Source: a virus. From it: a stretch of 42,836 nucleotides of DNA. The notes beneath the pieces are model-generated. The model was not told the DNA's origin. It was given only the letters and a program-made list of their open reading frames with translations, and did no database searches. The stretch is from positions 1 to 42,836 of the IMG/VR virus record IMGVR_UViG_3300045988_108122; one strand, 5' to 3'. A program made the position numbers and the translations under genes. Below, in pieces: positions 2,596-39,318 of the stretch. Every line of letters begins with the position of its first letter. Position 1 is the stretch's first letter.

Positions 2596-2633
2596 AAAAA
2601 ATAAGGCAGCCACAACTATTATGTGACTGCCTT
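2596..2633 (-). terminator. Intrinsic terminator (minus strand) overlapping the stop of 2619-2861
   Basis: An 11-bp stem pairs 2603-2613 with 2623-2633. Its single mismatch is C.A on the plus strand but a G.U wobble on the minus-strand RNA. A U-run follows on the minus strand. Confidence 0.6.
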
Positions 2634-2861
2634 TAATGCTCTCTTAACTGAATTATACGCCTGCTGCAGATCTCTTTCGACCGTTTGCACTGACGTATCT
2701 ATTTTCATTGCTATTTGATAGTTTTTAAGATCGTGAATAAATTTGAGTTCTATAATTTCTATTTGCCGCGGCGTTAGTTTGGCTTCTGAAATGATTGCTT
2801 CAAATTCCTTTCGTGTGGACTGCGAAAGCCAATCTCTTGCCTGCAAACGGCAAGTATCCAT
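2619..2861 (-). CDS. Small sigma-70 region-4-like / HTH transcriptional regulator (80 aa)
   Basis: LTPRQIEIIELKFIHDLKNYQIAMKIDTSVQTVERDLQQA resembles the region-4 HTH of sigma and LuxR-type proteins. Confidence 0.6.
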   Translation of the reverse strand: MDTCRLQARDWLSQSTRKEFEAIISEAKLTPRQIEIIELKFIHDLKNYQIAMKIDTSVQTVERDLQQAYNSVKRALKAVT

Positions 2862-6230: not shown

Positions 6231-7448
6231 TCACCCTATCCAAAATTCAGCACCATTTGGTAATACTAAATGTCCAGATGCATTGTATTTGGGTATTTTA
6301 TTTGCAGCATTGCCGACTTCGCTATTGGGCACATAATCCATTTCAGGAAGTTGATTTGTTGGTACTTTTCCATCTACAAGGTCTGCTTTGTTTTGTAATG
6401 GTTCTTCTATTATTTTTTGAACCTGTGCCGCGACAGCCTCTTTTGTCTTTAATGGCGTCATTGCTTTGTTATCAACTACACCAGCAATGGCTTCATCTGT
6501 TGTCGCTATACCAGTAATACCAGCTAAACCTTCTATGCTATCAGCAATACCCTGCGCTCTGTCTGCCTGCTCTGTAGCTGTAGTTGCTGAGCTAGCAGCG
6601 CTGTTAGCACTTGCTTCTGCAGCTTCTTTTGAAGTTTGCGCAGCCGCCATACTATCCGCAGCGCTTGAAGCAGATTGAGCCGCAGCCTTTTTAGAATCCT
6701 CGGCAGCAGCGACTTTACTATCTATTTCAGCAGTAATATTCTCAACTGTTTTCTGCGCAGCATCTTCTGCCGCAGTAGCCGCAGCTTCAACAGCGGTATT
6801 TTTAGCAGCAACAGCTTCGTCCTTTATTTCCGTAGTCTCATTTACTGCAGCATCCTTTATAGCGGTCAGTTCTTCGATTGCAGTATTTTTAATATTTGTT
6901 GTTTCGTTAACGGCGCTCTCTTTGACCTGTTTCGTTTGCTCTAATACATCTTTAGCTAAAGGTAACACCCTAGCAGGGTCCTCCGTCAGTACAAGCCCAT
7001 CACCAGCATCATTGATTCTAAAACTCATTCCAGCCTTTACCGGAAAAGTATTATTAAAATTATTTACATCAACACCAGCAGATAATGTTCTATTCAATTT
7101 TTCATTTAATTGCTGACATATAAAAGTTAGATCGTCAAAAGACAATTCAATATTCTCTGCAAAAAACGGACCTTGATTAACCAGATTCATTAGCTGATAC
7201 AATGGCAGCTCACGATAAATAGTTATTTTATGACCATCAGGCAGCGGATCGCCATTAGCTGGATAAGTAACTGTTTTAGCTCCAAGATCAACAGAAAAAT
7301 TCTCCGTTTCTACGGCAACGCTATCATCACCTGTAATATATACTTTTATATATTCAGGATGATCCGTCATCTGAAATGTTATTGGGAATTTCGTTGTCGC
7401 TCCATTACCAACATAAATATCTTTAACTGTCGTATTCTGTACCGTCAT
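6231..7448 (-). CDS. Tail fibre protein (405 aa)
   Basis: The N-terminus (YVGNGATTKFPITF) is typical of podovirus fibre anchors. It also has a long Ala/Glu coiled coil and a C-terminal tip. Confidence 0.75.
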   Translation of the reverse strand: MTVQNTTVKDIYVGNGATTKFPITFQMTDHPEYIKVYITGDDSVAVETENFSVDLGAKTVTYPANGDPLPDGHKITIYRELPLYQLMNLVNQGPFFAENIELSFDDLTFICQQLNEKLNRTLSAGVDVNNFNNTFPVKAGMSFRINDAGDGLVLTEDPARVLPLAKDVLEQTKQVKESAVNETTNIKNTAIEELTAIKDAAVNETTEIKDEAVAAKNTAVEAAATAAEDAAQKTVENITAEIDSKVAAAEDSKKAAAQSASSAADSMAAAQTSKEAAEASANSAASSATTATEQADRAQGIADSIEGLAGITGIATTDEAIAGVVDNKAMTPLKTKEAVAAQVQKIIEEPLQNKADLVDGKVPTNQLPEMDYVPNSEVGNAANKIPKYNASGHLVLPNGAEFWIG

Positions 7449-7459
7449 ATGCTCGCCCC

Positions 7460-7618
7460 CTATATTTTTGCTGAGGCCGGAGCATCTTTAACCACAGTAG
7501 CATTTAACATACTGGCTATGGTTGATGCTATCTTTAACTTCTCGTCCAAAGATGCAGCCTTCTTCTGCTCCTCCAACAGTAAATTTATTTGGTCTTGTAT
7601 GATAGCCTCTTTATCCAT
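7460..7618 (-). CDS. Small hypothetical protein (52 aa)
   Basis: The ATG at 7618 has a GGAG RBS. It lies just upstream of the fibre gene on the same strand and falls below the ORF-track cutoff. Confidence 0.45.
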   Translation of the reverse strand: MDKEAIIQDQINLLLEEQKKAASLDEKLKIASTIASMLNATVVKDAPASAKI

Positions 7619-7622
7619 AATT

Positions 7623-7804
7623 TCACTCCTGTTCTATGTACTGGTGTTCATCAAACCAACGAACTTTTACGCCGGTTGCCTGCAAATCCAAGATATGTTT
7701 TTCAACAGCTTTATTACATCAGAATGACGTTTCCCAAAATGCTCCGCCACCTGCCGACTAGAAACAACTACCTGCCTGTCAATGATTTGCACTAAATTTT
7801 CCAT
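7623..7804 (-). pseudogene. Rha-family regulatory protein N-terminal fragment, reading frame broken at an A5 run
   Basis: The ATG at 7804 has a GGAAGGAGAG RBS. VVSSRQVAEHFGKRHSDVIK matches the Rha signature. Frame 0 stops at 7667. A 1-nt shift at the run (plus-strand T5, 7698-7702) continues as KHILDLQATGVKVRWFDEHQYIEQE to 7623. Confidence 0.5.
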
Positions 7805-7824
7805 AAATCGTCTCTCCTTCCAAA

Positions 7825-7852
7825 TAAAAAAGCGCCTACCGAAGTAAGCGCT
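7825..7852 (-). terminator. Intrinsic terminator with UUCG tetraloop (minus strand) directly before the Rha-like/fibre block
   Basis: The stem pairs 7832-7839 with 7844-7851. Its one mismatch is a G.U wobble only on the minus-strand RNA. A U6 run follows. It is a near-copy of the hairpin at 29100-29127. Confidence 0.7.
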
Positions 7853-7881
7853 TTCTATTAAGTTCTAACTAACTTTATGAT

Positions 7882-7920
7882 ACTATTTTAACTCATTTTT
7901 ATAGTGGTTTTGTCGGATAC
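7882..7920 (-). promoter_or_regulatory. Conserved late-leader box, copy 1 (minus-strand reading GTATCCGACA-N16-GAGTTAAAATAGT)
   Basis: It is one of three copies. The TGTCGG and ACTATTTTAACTC blocks are 29 nt apart, start to start, in all three. Confidence 0.55.
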
Positions 7921-7972
7921 ATTTTTAATTTTTTTACATCGCCTCTGCTCTCATATCCAATAACCTTACATT

Positions 7973-8011
7973 ACTATTTTAACTCTTGTTAAATGGCATT
8001 TTGTCGGAAAC
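7973..8011 (-). promoter_or_regulatory. Conserved late-leader box, copy 2 (GTTTCCGACA-N16-GAGTTAAAATAGT)
   Basis: It has the same two conserved blocks and spacing as copies 1 and 3, and lies 91 bp from copy 1. Confidence 0.55.
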
Positions 8012-8141
8012 TTTTTAAAATTTTTTCTTAATCTAAAGTAAGGTTAAATAACTAAACTAAATTGACAAACTATTATAATTTTAGTAGTATAATAATAGAT
8101 AAAAACAACAACAGTTATATAATAGTATAGAGGTGGTATAT

Positions 8142-8279
8142 ATGTGGACTGGAACATGTGGATTGTTAGAAGGTAAAAAAAATGTACTTTTACCTGAGTT
8201 TAACTCATTCCAAAATACAAATAATAATAAAACCGAAGATACTAATTGCAAAAACAATGATAATAAAGAAAAAAAATAA
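8142..8279 (+). CDS. Small hydrophilic peptide (45 aa), uncertain
   Basis: An AGAGGTGG RBS lies 5 nt before the ATG. The ORF ends 1 nt before a bidirectional terminator. The composition is low-complexity and N/K-rich, so it could be non-coding. Confidence 0.3.
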   Translation: MWTGTCGLLEGKKNVLLPEFNSFQNTNNNKTEDTNCKNNDNKEKK

Positions 8280-8307
8280 AGAGCGGAAATCCGCTCTTTA
8301 TTTTTTT
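8278..8307. terminator. Bidirectional intrinsic terminator between convergent genes
   Basis: The stem AAAGAGCGG / CCGCTCTTT has an A-run on one side and T7 on the other. Confidence 0.75.
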
Positions 8308-9169
8308 AACAATTATTATCTCTTCTATACTTTTTCTCTTGATTATACCACTTATTATAAAGTTTTATAATTTCTGTATAATATTTTCTTGCAGGATCAT
8401 CATTTCTAATAGCTATAAAAAAATACAGATTTTTTACATATTCTAAAAATGTTTGATGTAATGAAGGGTATACATAGTCGCTTTCAGCAAGATTATTATT
8501 AAAATACATACACAAATATTCCAATTTATTTAAAACTTTATCCATCATAGAAACAGTTTTAAAGTAAAGATCATTAATCCATAATTCATTTATAGATTCT
8601 ACTGTAAGATCGTTTGATTTATTTTTAAACTCATAAAACTTTAAATACAAATCAATTTCAGATAAATTATATCCTATTGTAAGAACTTCTATATAAATTT
8701 CAGGTTGTACTTTTTTCCGAAAAATATTAATAAGACATTCTCTTCTTTCTTCGCCAAATAAACCATCCATCTCTTTTTTATCAAATCTTATTATTTTTTC
8801 GTTATTTAAAAATAGAATTTCATCAATGAATCCTATTTTTTGTAAATATGAATTAAAAGCATGTAATTCCATAAGGATATCAGTAGCATATAATTTAGCC
8901 ATTTCAAAAGCATTTTCTTGAGCAAGTTGTTTATTTCTTGTTTCATTTTCTAACTTTATATAATAAACCTGCACTGCAACGAAAATAAGCGAAATACCTG
9001 TTGCTATAGCTCCTAATGATGAAAAGAAATTAGTATTTTCTGTTAGAATTTTATGAGCAACAGGAAAATAATATAAACCTACAACAGCCGATATAACTAA
9101 TGCACTAATTATAGATATTTTATTTTTAGACAGCAAACAAAATATTTTATTTTTAAATTCTGCAATCAT
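8306..9169 (-). CDS. Two-pass membrane protein with a large cytoplasmic domain (287 aa), unknown function; accessory (moron) gene
   Basis: It has two N-terminal TM segments and very AT-rich codon usage unlike the flanking virion genes. It is insulated by terminators on both sides. Confidence 0.7.
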   Translation of the reverse strand: MIAEFKNKIFCLLSKNKISIISALVISAVVGLYYFPVAHKILTENTNFFSSLGAIATGISLIFVAVQVYYIKLENETRNKQLAQENAFEMAKLYATDILMELHAFNSYLQKIGFIDEILFLNNEKIIRFDKKEMDGLFGEERRECLINIFRKKVQPEIYIEVLTIGYNLSEIDLYLKFYEFKNKSNDLTVESINELWINDLYFKTVSMMDKVLNKLEYLCMYFNNNLAESDYVYPSLHQTFLEYVKNLYFFIAIRNDDPARKYYTEIIKLYNKWYNQEKKYRRDNNC

Positions 9170-9267
9170 ACACAGCTCTTCTTTCCACGATAGTAAATAC
9201 TTTTTATATTATACCATATAGTTTATAAATGTGATATAATTGTGAAAAACGAAAGAAGGAAAACATC

Positions 9268-9510
9268 GTGGAAACCAAATTGCTTAATTTTTCACTTTCA
9301 GCATCTATTCTTTTTATGAATTTATCCATATTGGGGTTAGATGATACTACATTTCATTATATATTTACCGCTGTTTTTTTTATGCCATACTTTATTTACT
9401 CAAGGAAAGCCGATTTTTCGTCAATCCACAAAAACATTTTAACTGTTTATTTAGTTCTTCTTGCCATGTCTATCCTGGGCAACTGGTTTCAGCACATCGG
9501 GTTAATTTAA
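9268..9510 (+). CDS. Small integral membrane protein (80 aa, about 3 TM)
   Basis: It starts at a GTG with a GAAGGA RBS. It is divergent from 8306-9169 and followed by a strong hairpin terminator. An extended -10 (TGATATAAT) lies upstream. Confidence 0.55.
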   Translation: METKLLNFSLSASILFMNLSILGLDDTTFHYIFTAVFFMPYFIYSRKADFSSIHKNILTVYLVLLAMSILGNWFQHIGLI

Positions 9511-9514
9511 GTAT

Positions 9515-9545
9515 AACCCCCTCGAATTTGAGGGGGTTGTTTTTA
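9515..9545 (+). terminator. Intrinsic terminator
   Basis: The stem AACCCCCTC (9515-9523) with GAGGGGGTT (9530-9538) is followed by GTTTTTA. Confidence 0.7.
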
Positions 9546-22724: not shown

Positions 22725-22748
22725 AGCCGGGGACATATGCCCCCGGCT
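22725..22748 (-). terminator. Intra-operon hairpin after the head module
   Basis: An 8-bp GC stem, AGCCGGGG / CCCCGGCT, is followed on the minus-strand RNA by UUCUUUAU, then by the RBS of 22108-22701. Confidence 0.5.
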
Positions 22749-27352: not shown

Positions 27353-28675
27353 TCACATACCGGCAAACGGATCATACGACTGCTGCCTAACATCATCTGT
27401 ATCAATAGGTACATATAATGGTCTAGCAAAAGTAAGTACAAAAGCATCTGCCAAATCTGGGCTTCTACCAAGCTTTTCTTTTATTTCCTTTTTTGGTTTA
27501 AGCATAATTCGAGAAGTTTTATCAGAAAATTTATATTCGACAACGCTTAATTCACTTTTAAATTCAGGAATATCCGGAATAGCACCGCCGCTTAATAACC
27601 AATCCCGGGCCTTGAAATACATTTCAGCCCTTATATTTTCAAACCTATTATGTTCCATAGCGTTGCTGCCAAAAGCGACTTCATAAACATTGTCATAGCC
27701 AAGTTGTCTTAATCTATCAATCACACCGGCGCCCATATTACCTACATCGATGAATACTATTTCTGGTCGATAATCTGCAATTGCTAAGATTACTCTGTCA
27801 ACAACCTCTGTAACATTTAGCTCTCTATAAACTCTTGGCTTATGAAGCATTAGCCCTTGACGAGCAAAAATAACAGTACTGTCATCGCCATATCTCGCTA
27901 CATCCACACCTAAAACAGTTGGCATACCAATAACATCTCTAGAAACCAGCGTCCTATGTGCAGCCTCAGTTACAAGATCTATAGGTATTACAACTTCACT
28001 AGCAGAAGCAGTAAAATCACAATAAAGTTCTTGGCGAATCTCAATTTTTGTCATATCTTTCATCATTGATTTAAGCTCAGCTTCGTCCAGGACACCACTT
28101 TCATCAGCTCTATAAAGACAGGTAAACCATTCTTCGCTGCGTTGAGCTTTTTGGTATATCTCATAGAACTGATTCTGTCCTTTAGGCGTTCCGATGAAAT
28201 ATGCGAACCCCTTACGATCAGCTAATGCCGGACGTATTACCTCGCCCCATAGTTCAGGCTTTATTTGAGCGTATTCATCAAGGACAACACCGTCCCAGTA
28301 AGTACCGCGAAGAGCATCAGGTTTATCTGCGCCTATAATATATATCCTTGCCCCAACAGCATTTTTATGCTTTGACGGCAGTTCTATAAACAGATCGCTT
28401 TCATTGACCTTTCTTCCCGGAATTGCGCTTGTGTAATATTTCAAATAGTTCCAGGCAATCATCTTAGCTTGGTTTCTAAACGGTGCCACGTATGCGAACT
28501 GAGGACTTATAAGCGTATTCTTAATAGCGCTCTTACTCAATTCGTTTATCATTCCTACGGTCTTGCCATAACGTCTGTGCGCTACTATAACAGCAAAACG
28601 ATATTTATCAAGCGCAGGATGAATTACATCTTTCCAAAGAGGTCTTGGTTTGTATGGTATAGTTATTACTTTCAA
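27353..28675 (-). CDS. terL: Terminase large subunit
   Basis: The Walker A-like AHRRYGKT, GADKPDALRGTYWDGVVLDE (Walker B) and a C-terminal nuclease-like region are present. It is coupled to terS. Confidence 0.9.
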   Translation of the reverse strand: MKVITIPYKPRPLWKDVIHPALDKYRFAVIVAHRRYGKTVGMINELSKSAIKNTLISPQFAYVAPFRNQAKMIAWNYLKYYTSAIPGRKVNESDLFIELPSKHKNAVGARIYIIGADKPDALRGTYWDGVVLDEYAQIKPELWGEVIRPALADRKGFAYFIGTPKGQNQFYEIYQKAQRSEEWFTCLYRADESGVLDEAELKSMMKDMTKIEIRQELYCDFTASASEVVIPIDLVTEAAHRTLVSRDVIGMPTVLGVDVARYGDDSTVIFARQGLMLHKPRVYRELNVTEVVDRVILAIADYRPEIVFIDVGNMGAGVIDRLRQLGYDNVYEVAFGSNAMEHNRFENIRAEMYFKARDWLLSGGAIPDIPEFKSELSVVEYKFSDKTSRIMLKPKKEIKEKLGRSPDLADAFVLTFARPLYVPIDTDDVRQQSYDPFAGM

Positions 28676-29076
28676 CCGTCATCACCAGCCCAGCGGAATG
28701 TAATAGGTTCTCCATCTTTGCCGCTGACCTCACGTTTCTCAACAAACGCTGCTATTGATTTTCCGTATAGCTCAGATGCTTTAAGCCTATTATTCATACG
28801 CTCTTCTTTATCGTCTATCACTTCTAGCCAAAACTTCCTTAATTTGCTAAGTTCATCTATGATATCTTTCTGTTCATCTGCAATTTTTTCTTCAGTAACA
28901 GTTTGAAGCTCTGCTACCCTGTCAACAATGTGCGCCTTTGTTAACAGCCTTGACGCAGCCTGCCTAGCGCTTTTCGCTGAATAGCCTGCATCTTTGGCTG
29001 CCTGCTCTTGCGTTTTACCACCTACAGCCATAAGCCGACAAAACTTCTCCTGCCTTGGATCTTTTAATGCAGCCAT
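28672..29076 (-). CDS. terS: Terminase small subunit
   Basis: The N-terminal HTH (QEKFCRLMAVGGKTQEQAAKDAGYSAKSARQAASRLL) is typical of Terminase_2-type small subunits. Confidence 0.85.
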   Translation of the reverse strand: MAALKDPRQEKFCRLMAVGGKTQEQAAKDAGYSAKSARQAASRLLTKAHIVDRVAELQTVTEEKIADEQKDIIDELSKLRKFWLEVIDDKEERMNNRLKASELYGKSIAAFVEKREVSGKDGEPITFRWAGDDG

Positions 29077-29099
29077 CTCTCATCACCACCTTTGCAAAT

Positions 29100-29127
29100 A
29101 AAAAAGCACCTAACCGAAGTTAAGTGC
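29100..29127 (-). terminator. Intrinsic terminator with UUCG tetraloop (minus strand) 24 nt before the terS start
   Basis: The stem pairs 29106-29114 with 29119-29127. Its one mismatch is a G.U wobble only on the minus-strand RNA. A U-run follows. The flanks (CAAATAAAAAAGC...ATTAAGTT) are nearly identical to those of 7825-7852. Confidence 0.7.
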
Positions 29128-29214
29128 CTTTATATTAAGTTTTATGCTAAATTTCGATGTACATTACCGTATTTTATCGGTTTTTTAATGTCGAATTATT
29201 TATGTAGATTAAAT

Positions 29215-29303
29215 TGGCGGAAGGTACAAGACTTGAACTTGTAAGCCGATTGCTCGACTGACGCCTTAGCAGGGCGCTGCGTTACCGATTACGCCAACCT
29301 TCC
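29215..29303 (-). tRNA. tRNA-Ser (anticodon GCU), CCA encoded
   Basis: I folded the cloverleaf by hand. The acceptor GGAAGGT pairs with ACCTTCC, and the anticodon loop is CTGCTAA. It has a long variable arm, a T-arm ACAAG-TTCAAGT-CTTGT and discriminator G. Confidence 0.9.
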
Positions 29304-29306
29304 GTA

Positions 29307-29398
29307 TGGCGGAGCAGGTAGGATTCGAACCCACACAGCGTATCCCTACGCCCTATCAGTTTTCAAGACTGCTCTCTTAGCCGTTTGAGTACTGCTCC
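29307..29398 (-). tRNA. tRNA-Ser (anticodon UGA), CCA encoded
   Basis: The acceptor GGAGCAG pairs with CTGCTCC, and the anticodon loop is CTTGAAA. The long variable arm has a GCGTA/TACGC stem, the T-arm is GTGGG-TTCGAAT-CCTAC, and the discriminator is G. Confidence 0.85.
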
Positions 29399-29493
29399 AT
29401 TAATGCCGCTGAATTACCCCAACGGCAGGGTAATGTCCAAGCGCTAAGCTTGAACGTTTCACCAAGCTTGTTGTAAGCCTACTAACTTACAAT

Positions 29494-29532
29494 ACTATTT
29501 TAACTCATTAAAACAGGTAATATGTCGGAAAC
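29494..29532 (-). promoter_or_regulatory. Conserved late-leader box, copy 3 (GTTTCCGACA-N16-GAGTTAAAATAGT)
   Basis: It lies directly downstream of the RinA/ArpU-like gene and upstream of the tRNAs and terS. Block spacing is the same as at 7882 and 7973. Confidence 0.6.
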
Positions 29533-29536
29533 TTTT

Positions 29537-29980
29537 TTATTTTATCAAACCTTTTTTCAATGCCAAACCAACAGCATCTCGGAGAAACTCTTTACGGAAT
29601 TCATAACAGGTATCTCTATTTACACCGGTTAATTCTGCAATTATTTTCATCGGCTTCCTTTTTTCATATTTTTGATACATAACTTTACCAGTAAGCTGAT
29701 TCTCATGTATCTTATAGGTTTCTGCGACAACTTCAAGCCATAGCTCCGGGTTCATTATTATCGACTGATATGGTCCATATCCAAACGATATCATACGTAC
29801 TGGCTCAATGTTTTTTAATGCTGCTGTTTCTGTTGGATTACTGATAAAAGCATGACCCCCACCGCCCGTATGCCCTTTCCTTGCAGTACGCTGCTCTTTT
29901 TCTTCATCAACAACTTTTTGTATTTGCTTACGATCCCAAAAGTACCGCTCTACATGCTTAATATACTGTTCTATTAGCAT
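29537..29980 (-). CDS. Late-gene transcriptional activator, RinA/ArpU-like
   Basis: The call rests on its size, its position just upstream of terS, ISNPTETAALKNIEP and the C-terminal HTH (IIAELTGVNRDTCYEFRKEFL), which is typical of this Firmicute phage family. Confidence 0.7.
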   Translation of the reverse strand: MLIEQYIKHVERYFWDRKQIQKVVDEEKEQRTARKGHTGGGGHAFISNPTETAALKNIEPVRMISFGYGPYQSIIMNPELWLEVVAETYKIHENQLTGKVMYQKYEKRKPMKIIAELTGVNRDTCYEFRKEFLRDAVGLALKKGLIK

Positions 29981-38552: not shown

Positions 38553-38644
38553 CTCAACACCCCTACAGTCACTACAGCAGCCATAATAGCAATGTATGTT
38601 CCGACAAATATTGCAGTAGTTGCTACGGTAAAATCTCTAATCAT
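38549..38644 (-). CDS. 31-aa single-TM peptide
   Basis: The product is MIRDFTVATTAIFVGTYIAIMAAVVTVGVLR. It has ATGA overlaps at both ends, which suggests translational coupling. Confidence 0.4.
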   Translation of the reverse strand: MIRDFTVATTAIFVGTYIAIMAAVVTVGVLR

Positions 38645-39062: not shown

Positions 39063-39195
39063 CTTCCTGATCCTCCTTTCTTTCAATTTCATCAAGTCCT
39101 TTACTATCCTTAACATACTTTTCTTCAAATTCTTCAGGGCTTAAATTCTTTACCACTTCGACAAACTTTGCCAAAGCTTCATCTTTCTTGTTCAT
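39043..39195 (-). CDS. Small acidic protein (50 aa)
   Basis: The ATG at 39195 has a weak GAGAG RBS. It overlaps the next start by 20 nt. It falls below the ORF-track cutoff. Confidence 0.35.
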   Translation of the reverse strand: MNKKDEALAKFVEVVKNLSPEEFEEKYVKDSKGLDEIERKEDQEDGACDV

Positions 39196-39215
39196 GGTAT
39201 ATCTCTCTTTCAAAG

Positions 39216-39318
39216 TTGATATACCAGTCGAAGCGTGTTATAATGTTCTCGTCAGCTTCGGCTGGTCACAAGAAACACTCGCTAAACTTTTCCAGGGTAC
39301 AGCGGGTGTTTCTTTTTT
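39216..39318 (+). ncRNA. Promoter plus small RNA of about 70 nt, antisense to the early (PR-type) transcript (OOP-like arrangement)
   Basis: The promoter is TTGATA (39216-39221), a 17-nt spacer, and TATAAT (39239-39244) with an extended -10 TGT. A CAGC-UUCG-GCUG hairpin follows. An 11-bp terminator stem pairs 39272-39282 with 39302-39312 and is followed by T6. Confidence 0.55.

Follow-up and report, generated by a model that had tools for sequence, protein, structure and literature searches.

Putative late-control modules with an intrinsic terminator ahead of the late genes in a podovirus-like prophage of Phascolarctobacterium faecium

Two loci of the DNA stretch analyzed here (positions 1 to 42,836 of IMG/VR virus record IMGVR_UViG_3300045988_108122, 42,836 nucleotides (nt) in all and referred to as the window) carry a promoter-like box, a leader, a hairpin terminator and the ribosome-binding site (RBS) of a late gene block, in that order. 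Locus A precedes terS and locus B precedes the fibre/lysis block. With a probability of roughly 45%, both loci are read here as late-control modules of an Ltr/RinA-like regulator, with late transcripts that read through an insulating terminator.

In the proposed mechanism, the box would be a regulator-dependent late promoter in which an A-rich tract is followed by the element GT(T/A)TCCGACA at about -42 to -33. This upstream element would be read by the sigma-region-4-like C-terminal helix-turn-helix of the regulator, a protein of 147 amino acids (aa), while TAAAAT, 20 nt beyond CCGACA, would be too distant for host sigma-A alone. Another conserved -10-like hexamer is located 2 nt further on, and the transcript is predicted to begin at the foot of a short 5' hairpin. 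The hairpin and U-run between the box promoter and the RBS of the first late open reading frame (ORF) would form an intrinsic terminator, which may insulate the late genes from the early operon, the leader cargo, lysogen-expressed morons and basal firing of the promoter. As there seems to be no room for a promoter between terminator and ORF, polymerase initiated at the box would have to read through, and the regulator loaded at the box might leave it terminator-resistant, as lambda Q does at pR'-tR'. Locus A would start the terS-to-virion block, with its leader as a cargo slot that here holds two tRNA-Ser genes. Locus B, apparently a shortened duplicate with two boxes, a 33-nt leader and a terminator, would restart late transcription for the fibre/lysis block downstream of a variable island that has its own terminator.

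The window is a podovirus-like prophage of P. faecium. The regulator gene is 99% identical in P. faecium strain DSM 14760, and the podovirus-like features comprise a T7-type portal, a nozzle protein and internal virion proteins. Every lytic gene lies on the minus strand, on which the early genes are followed by the 147-aa regulator gene, locus A, terS, terL and the portal, capsid and tail genes. The gene of a 2067-aa virion protein, which ends at 9543, comes next, and an AT-rich island (about 8020-9540) separates it from locus B. Beyond locus B lie a Rha remnant, a 52-aa ORF, the fibre genes and the endolysin gene.

The box and its covariation with the regulator

The motif TCCGACA-N16-GAGTTAAAATAGTA occurs three times in the window, as exact matches on the minus strand at 7881-7917, 7972-8008 and 29493-29529. 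No further match with up to three mismatches was found in the window, and 100 shuffles yielded none (0 expected by chance). An earlier reading of the DNA from its letters alone (the sequence-only reading) had likewise counted three minus-strand copies. Its length of 39 nt becomes 40 nt when the GT(T/A) prefix is included, and its low coordinates were off by one, with the full boxes located at 7881-7920, 7972-8011 and 29493-29532. The degenerate fourth copy that it had placed near 29165-29195 was discarded: neither half of the box matches there at up to three mismatches, the spacing from CGACA to TAAAAT is 12 instead of 20 nt, and CGACA is not conserved in relatives, reading CGGCG in L190.

Box A (29493-29532) begins 5 nt past the stop codon of the 147-aa gene (29537-29980, minus strand), with the upstream element GTTTCCGACA at 29523-29532, TAAAAT at 29497-29502 and a second -10-like hexamer, TATTGT, extending to 29489. 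Box B1 (7972-8011) is an exact match, with the homology of the relatives beginning at about 8024-8031, and box B2 (7881-7920) lies 91 nt downstream of B1. Each box contains a single TCCGACA, and direct repeats were not encountered. The poor fit to a sigma-70-type promoter noted earlier holds, as CCGACA and TAAAAT are separated by 20 nt in the window boxes, in L195 and in L207, compared to the usual 16-18 nt. A consensus promoter scan did not call the boxes, because the -35-like hexamer lies 20 nt from the -10 hexamer (21 nt in L196). Promoter-like matches in the window were not enriched over shuffles. A sigma-70-like candidate inside the regulator gene (TTGGCA-16-TAAAAT, 29566-29539) was rejected, since it is not conserved in L190.

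Conservation of the box was assessed in 77 loci that had been collected via the regulator protein and not via the box itself. TCCGACA and GAGTTAAAAT are essentially invariant in these loci, while at least six spacer positions vary. The homology stops directly past the 5' hairpin, with different cargo beyond. When more diverged lineages, with regulators that are 35-100% identical, were aligned on the -10 hexamer, GTnnnnnAC(A/T) was found at the same position (about -42 to -33) in eight lineages, with an A-rich tract upstream and the -10 hexamer, often with a TGn extension, downstream. After a gap of 2 nt, these lineages share another hexamer, TA(T/G/A)TGT, and the distance from the -35-like hexamer to the -10 is always 20 nt, apart from the 21 nt of L196.

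The upstream element changes together with the regulator. Regulators with the helix RDTxYExR pair with TCCGACA, and each of L206, L207, L195 and L196 combines a different helix with a different element. A natural swap is provided by the relative P0005, which is about 98% identical to the window regulator over the N-terminal 100 residues, but has the recognition helix TRQSIYLWR compared to NRDTCYEFR in the window protein. Its box reads GTAAAGTACA compared to GT(T/A)TCCGACA, with TCCG to AAGT as the only change, and spacer, -10 and leader are otherwise the same. This swap is the strongest single argument for a regulator-specific box. Taken together, the comparisons support the box as a putative regulator-specific, promoter-like site, with an upstream element that covaries with the helix-turn-helix of the regulator, and it is probable that the box is both the cis site of the regulator and a promoter.

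The boxes and hairpins might instead be repeat remnants or recombination linkers that have no regulatory role and are kept through module exchange, as the edges of the modules, located past hairpin 1, at 8024-8031 and past the RBS, coincide with mosaic junctions. This explanation is hardly credible, given the position-specific selection on the box (core invariant, spacer free), the covariation of the upstream element with the regulator helix, the hairpin structure that is kept through stem replacement, the orientation that is always co-directional with the late genes, and a layout that recurs in unrelated sequence in distant lineages.

A further TCCGACA is found on the plus strand at 38600-38634, with TAAAAT at an offset of 22 (GTTCCGACA-N22-TAAAAT). 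This site is antisense to small early genes and directed towards a cI-like gene, lacks the GAGT and AGTA flanks as well as the second hexamer, and has a rough chance expectation of 0.02-0.05. L190 has an identical copy, yet the DNA around it is identical throughout as well, rendering this conservation uninformative. The site could be due to chance or could be an antisense late promoter.

The 147-aa regulator

The regulator is a protein of about 15 kDa encoded by the last early gene, just upstream of terS, and the same synteny is found in relatives. Searches of the 147-aa sequence against Pfam and NCBIfam gave no match, and only a weak match to phrog_248 ("transcriptional activator") was obtained. 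An exhaustive profile search retrieved about 208 representative relatives, with the motifs SDPT..A and PExWL and a C-terminal helix-turn-helix in common. In the AF2 model (pLDDT 92), the N-terminal half consists of three helices and a beta-hairpin, while the C-terminal domain aligns with sigma region 4 structures (3hug, 2h27) at target-normalized TM-scores of 0.65-0.79 and root-mean-square deviations of 2.0-2.6 Å. Structural matches over the full length are weak and limited to ECF sigma factors (E 0.16-1), and a match to Sigma70_r2 was not obtained. Among viral proteins, the structural neighbours carry the annotations Sigma70_r4, DUF1492, transcriptional activator or ECF sigma.

The protein had been labelled RinA/ArpU-like. 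An hhalign comparison with 80alpha RinA gives an E-value of 8.8e-5 at a probability of 60% over 119 collinear columns, and the regulator is therefore a remote relative of the Ltr superfamily. It is not a RinA/ArpU member, as it matches none of the RinA, ArpU (TIGR01637), Sigma70_r4 and DUF1492 families. Of 71 members of its own family, only 3 and 2 touch DUF1492 and Sigma70_r4_2, respectively. Nucleotide searches of an annotated phage collection returned no relatives of locus A or B, tRNA matches aside. A tblastn search with the 147-aa regulator and searches of viral contigs with P0016 and P0017 gave no matches.

Terminators in front of the late genes

Terminator A (29095-29140, minus strand) consists of the A-tract AACTTAATATAAAG, a stem at 29128-29106 with a cUUCGg loop (29118-29115) and a U6 run (29105-29100) followed by AUUUG. 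Terminator B (7821-7864, minus strand) comprises AACTTAATAGAAAG, a stem at 7851-7832 with a UUCG loop (7843-7840) and a U6 run (7831-7826), again followed by AUUUG. The minus-strand RNAs fold at -17.4 kcal/mol (A, z -7.6) and -17.5 kcal/mol (B, z -5.9), compared to -8.8 and -11.0 kcal/mol for the plus strand, where an A.C mismatch and a broken T-run are found. Both modules are therefore present and specific to the minus strand, as the sequence-only reading had described them, including the G.U wobble that is exclusive to the minus-strand RNA. Terminator A was also called by a terminator scan. The stems measure 8-10 bp and end in U6-A-U3 tails (29105-29096 and 7831-7822), with the Shine-Dalgarno sequence 8-10 nt beyond.

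The two hairpins differ by compensatory changes, namely one A-U to G-C double change and one paired deletion; pairs were counted by hand and from the folds, as MAFFT misplaced the paired deletion. In the relatives, the invariant flanks AACTTAATAnAAA and TTTTTTATTTG enclose one of three stems that are unrelated to each other. The 11 allelic variants (138 instances) all keep the hairpin, at -11 to -17.5 kcal/mol, 10 of them are more stable on the sense strand, and changes on a single side of the stem lead to G.U pairs. Terminator B is found in 43 identical instances, and another variant, GCACUUAC-UUCG-GUGGGUGC, is present in the L206 lineage, whose regulator is 50% identical. The structure is thus kept while the stem sequence is replaced, which is the covariation in related phages that had been suggested as a check. 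These comparisons support the hairpins as putative genuine intrinsic terminators under structural selection, and it is very likely that they are functional.

The order of box, leader, terminator and RBS is not restricted to close relatives. It recurs with unrelated sequences in L195, L196, L198, L200, L203 and L206, with terminators of -13 to -24 kcal/mol, and in phages with a RinA protein. In 80alpha, TGGCAGT is present twice and is followed by TAAAAT..TATTAT GA TAGTGT, a hairpin, a leader of about 60 nt, a terminator and terS, and phiIPLA88 has the same layout, also with two repeats. In the Latilactobacillus phage TMW 1.46 P1, GTTGGCAC occurs twice, the leader holds a tRNA-like gene and the terminator stands directly before AAGGTGGTGA. 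The arrangement of promoter-like box, leader, terminator and late genes that was first seen in the window is therefore conserved in diverged lineages.

Crossing of the terminator by late transcripts

The two terminators are located 23-26 nt ahead of a start codon. At locus A, 23 nt separate the U6 run from the ATG of terS (29076; 28672-29092 including the RBS AAAGGTGGTGA, minus strand), the first gene of the head/packaging block (Terminase_2, 2.2e-12; phrog_51). A sigma-70-type promoter between the terminator and terS, or overlapping the terminator, was rejected in view of this 23-nt gap and of a stem that varies in sequence and length among alleles. TATAAA before stem A was rejected as part of a promoter as well, the relatives reading TACACA, TACTAA or TAGAAA. 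The short gap and the differing stems point to late transcripts that are initiated no further downstream than the box and have to pass the terminator. Furthermore, the distance from box to ORF varies between about 80 nt at B2 and about 750 nt in L193, which fits initiation at the box and not activation of a downstream promoter at fixed geometry.

Several observations weigh against these loci being modules at which the regulator carries late transcription across the terminator. The evidence for a mechanism of the 147-aa protein and the box in this phage is at the level of sequence and predicted structure. The regulator has no match to Phage_antitermQ, and its fold matches in the PDB are ECF sigma factors and region 4, with none to Q; neither a Q-like protein nor a put-like RNA was found. 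Each box has one upstream element, whereas Ltr binding sites are described as direct repeats (PMC3753634), with two each in 80alpha, phiIPLA88 and the Latilactobacillus phage, and either of the two tandem -10-like hexamers is a candidate for use. The layout is absent in the more distant L197, L199, L201 and L202. Processive antitermination over 20 kb from locus A would make locus B redundant, and a strong promoter with a partly leaky terminator would equally yield late expression. Finally, mapping in phi11 and 80alpha placed the RinA-dependent 5' end beyond the equivalent terminator and 23 nt ahead of terS, and for the 80alpha mapping the RNA had been treated to remove monophosphate 5' ends (PMC3152322).

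The latter data favour a staphylococcal model, in which the box is a remote activator site, the hairpin ends the early operon and the leader cargo, and late transcription starts at or after the U-run from a non-canonical promoter that overlaps the terminator. For binding, RinA depends on sequences that lie upstream of the mapped terS 5' end by more than 155 bp, a result that puzzled the authors (PMC3152322), the Ltr papers place the terminator between ltr and the terS promoter (PMC3753634), and 80alpha has the same sequence layout as the window. However, the 23 nt between U6 and ATG are partly filled by the Shine-Dalgarno sequence, and the would-be -35 to -12 region is a stem-loop of 20-30 nt that varies among alleles between invariant flanks. 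The variable distance between box and ORF and the full promoter anatomy of the box, at fixed geometry, also disagree with a remote activator site, rendering this model decidedly improbable for the window. In 80alpha itself, a 1,237-nt RNA spans rinA into terL (PMC10686824); the equivalent terminator is therefore crossed in vivo.

Crossing could be achieved by unmodified polymerase. In such a leaky attenuator, a regulator-dependent promoter would be followed by a real terminator that a fixed fraction of polymerases reads through, with the terminator setting the ratio of tRNA cargo to late mRNA and insulating the late genes from upstream transcription. This explanation draws equally on the evidence for promoter and terminator, no antiterminator protein or RNA has been identified, and a polymerase lacking terminator resistance would need locus B as a restart point. 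On the other hand, the terminators look efficient (8-10 bp stems, a cUUCGg loop, U6-A-U3 tails and about -17 kcal/mol) and precede every essential late gene, and many lineages have retained a promoter that precedes the terminator, even though insulation would be free of cost with the two in reverse. We consider a leaky attenuator unlikely. A crossing akin to that of lambda Q is favoured because the terminators look efficient, guard every essential late gene and stand in a costly order that has been kept. That read-through depends on the regulator is a tentative proposal, for which we would not offer quite even odds.

Alternatively, the unit from box to terminator might mainly produce a terminated small RNA that has its own function, of about 55 nt at B2 and about 145 nt at B1, as well as tRNA precursors at locus A, with the late genes expressed only as a by-product of read-through. 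The distance from promoter to terminator is short at B2 and in L195, and StxS, from pR'-tR' of Stx phages, is a precedent (PMC7547250). Against this, the leader between hairpin 1 and the terminator is not conserved in sequence across lineages, there is no Rfam family match, and terS and the fibre block have no other source of transcription; a small RNA as the main product is very improbable.

Comparison with known late-control systems

In lambda, the gene of Q is located immediately upstream of the late promoter pR', and a short leader and the intrinsic terminator tR' precede the late genes. Q binds DNA at the promoter, where a -10-like hexamer is present just downstream of the -10, at +1 to +6, as a sigma-dependent, promoter-proximal pause element in the initially transcribed region. 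The window shares with this system, and with those of Q21 and Q82, a regulator gene just upstream of a putative late promoter, as well as a leader and an intrinsic terminator that stand ahead of the late genes. The window regulator, however, has neither sequence nor fold similarity to Q, and the second hexamer TA(T/G/A)TGT, a candidate pause element, lies 2 nt after the -10 and not at +1 to +6 of the predicted start site. The pR' promoter is always on and is terminated in lysogens (PMC7547250), whereas the box, with its 20-nt spacer, is probably not constitutive.

A further close counterpart is the Ltr superfamily (RinA of phi11/80alpha, ArpU, LtrA-C; PMC3152322, PMC3753634), in which a small regulator with a sigma-region-4-like C-terminal helix-turn-helix is likewise encoded by the last early gene directly upstream of terS, with its cis site right after its stop codon and an intrinsic terminator between regulator gene and terS. 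The 80alpha, phiIPLA88 and Latilactobacillus phages also share the succession of binding repeats, tandem -10-like hexamers, 5' hairpin, leader, terminator and RBS. In contrast to this superfamily, the window protein falls below every curated family threshold, the published late start past the terminator is infeasible in the 23-nt gap, a second, shortened module is present before the fibre/lysis block, and the host is a diderm Negativicute. An Ltr-type regulator, a cis site directly after its gene and a terminator before terS are thus already known. New are the evidence that the promoter precedes the terminator and that nothing else is able to drive terS, the covariation of the regulator helix with the upstream element, and the duplication of the module in a shortened form. 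The Ltr-like family also extends into phages of Negativicutes.

Other systems share parts of the arrangement. AlpA of Pseudomonas aeruginosa, which has been named an antiterminator (PMC9998450), is also a small helix-turn-helix protein that acts at a promoter with a terminator ahead of lysis genes, but it belongs to an unrelated family, and the loading of the window regulator onto polymerase is a proposal. In HK022 put RNA and lambda N-nut, hairpins stand immediately downstream of the promoter, with terminators beyond. In the window, in contrast, no RNA structure beyond a generic 5' hairpin is conserved across lineages, which led to the rejection of a put-like cis RNA, and tRNA excision from the leader would sever an RNA tether. 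As with StxS of Stx phages (PMC7547250), a short terminated transcript would be an expected by-product (about 55 nt from B2), but no conserved leader sequence suggests a trans-acting RNA.

The timing of packaging and lysis by late-gene control in temperate phages governs transduction in gut bacteria, and the mechanism of the Ltr/RinA class has so far been described as "activation" only. The locus offers a clean natural test case, as no promoter can hide behind the terminator, the natural domain swap pins the DNA element that the regulator reads, and the minimal module of about 100 nt (B2 and the terminator) is portable to reporter or in vitro assays. If read-through proves to be regulator-dependent, a large family of phage regulators would move to the class of antiterminators that are loaded at a promoter, and the leader would become a protected slot for phage tRNAs and other cargo. 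By extension, the RinA/Ltr-type late activators, which are widespread among Firmicutes phages, might load in a Q-like manner at the promoter adjacent to their own gene and make polymerase terminator-resistant. This generalization is supported by the order conserved between Phascolarctobacterium phages, 80alpha, phiIPLA88 and the Latilactobacillus phage, and, if true, it would account for a RinA binding site that lies more than 155 bp ahead of the mapped terS 5' end, on the other side of a terminator; the generalization is possible, though on the whole somewhat unlikely.

Locus B and the variable island

Box B2 corresponds to box A fused to terminator A, with the leader deleted except for a mini hairpin (AAGUU-AGUUAG-AACUU, 7860-7875, minus strand) as the counterpart of hairpin 1 in the fold. 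This leaves a leader of 33 nt, which folds solely into the mini hairpin and the terminator, and an alternative structure of the riboswitch or attenuator type was rejected accordingly. The sequence-only reading had taken the U-runs of both loci to be followed by the RBS and start of a late gene block, at terS (29076) and at a fibre block (7804). This is correct for terS. The first ORF past terminator B (7667-7804, minus strand), however, is a 45-aa N-terminal remnant of a Rha-like antirepressor, of which relatives carry full-length genes of 245-254 aa directly after the same terminator and RBS. The fibre/lysis block served by locus B is opened by the 52-aa ORF (7460-7618) and the tail fibre gene (6231-7448), both on the minus strand.

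Among relatives, the homology of locus B reaches from 8024-8031 to just past the RBS, such that the locus is a conserved linker with variable DNA on both sides. It is followed by a complete Rha-like gene, by the remnant of one, by small ORFs or directly by the fibre gene, depending on the relative. On its upstream side, the locus is set apart from the 2067-aa virion gene by the AT-rich island, which ends in a strong terminator (8270-8307, minus strand). For the fibre/lysis block, locus B therefore has the appearance of a module for restart and insulation.

The island itself (about 8020-9540) contains the gene of a 287-aa membrane protein (8306-9169, minus strand; DUF4760-like C-terminus, phrog_9659) with its own promoter-like site (9235-9208) and the terminator at 8307-8270, as well as an 80-aa ORF on the plus strand (9268-9510) with a terminator at 9513-9540. 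PADLOC gave no matches on 8020-9540. The island cargo of relatives differs and in some includes a helix-turn-helix gene that resembles window positions 39190-39318.

The leader of locus A and other features of the late region

Between box A and terminator A, the leader contains three hairpins and both tRNA-Ser genes, as described before. Hairpin 1 (UUGUAAG-loop-CUUACAA, 29471-29492, minus strand) marks the predicted 5' end of the transcript and is the last conserved part of the promoter module. It is followed by hairpins 2 and 3 (29404-29469, with hairpin 3 at 29404-29427) and by the cargo, tRNA-Ser(UGA) at 29307-29398 and tRNA-Ser(GCU) at 29215-29303, all on the minus strand. Relatives carry other cargo in this slot. 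Rfam searches yielded the two tRNAs alone in the window and nothing in the leaders of relatives.

Hairpin 3 (UGCCGUUGGG-GUAA-UUCAGCGGCA) recurs at cargo borders in L190, L192, L193 and L206 with compensatory changes, for example as GCCGCC..GGCGGC in L206 and UCAACGGCA in L193. In TMW 1.46 P1, a tRNA-like gene with a four-base anticodon call (gtgc; L209, 1437-1513) lies between the RinA-type box and the terminator and mirrors the tRNA cargo of the window. In L206 (3020-3230), L193 (about 1560-1945) and many IMG/VR relatives, for example those of the commonest leader class, the leader tRNAs are replaced by a conserved non-coding element of a few hundred nt. The shared stretches include GGCAAACCGTATG, and apparent compensatory changes (GCTC..GAGC compared to GCCC..GGGC) are present; the element has no Rfam match and could represent a structured RNA that is as yet undescribed.

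At the end of the late region, after the endolysin gene, an 80-aa protein (2619-2861, minus strand) consists of a sigma-70 region 4 domain alone (Sigma70_r4_2, 1.2e-7), matches phrog_248 and is followed by a terminator at 2633-2603. This protein was rejected as an antiterminator, its match to Phage_antitermQ being sub-threshold (E 0.019) and its gene lying at the far end of the late region. Within the late operon, a strong G+C-rich hairpin with a weak U-rich tail (AGCCGGGGGC-AUAU-GUCCCCGGCU, 22725-22748, minus strand) is located between the genes of a 93-aa and a 197-aa protein, and may be an internal attenuator that late transcription also has to pass.

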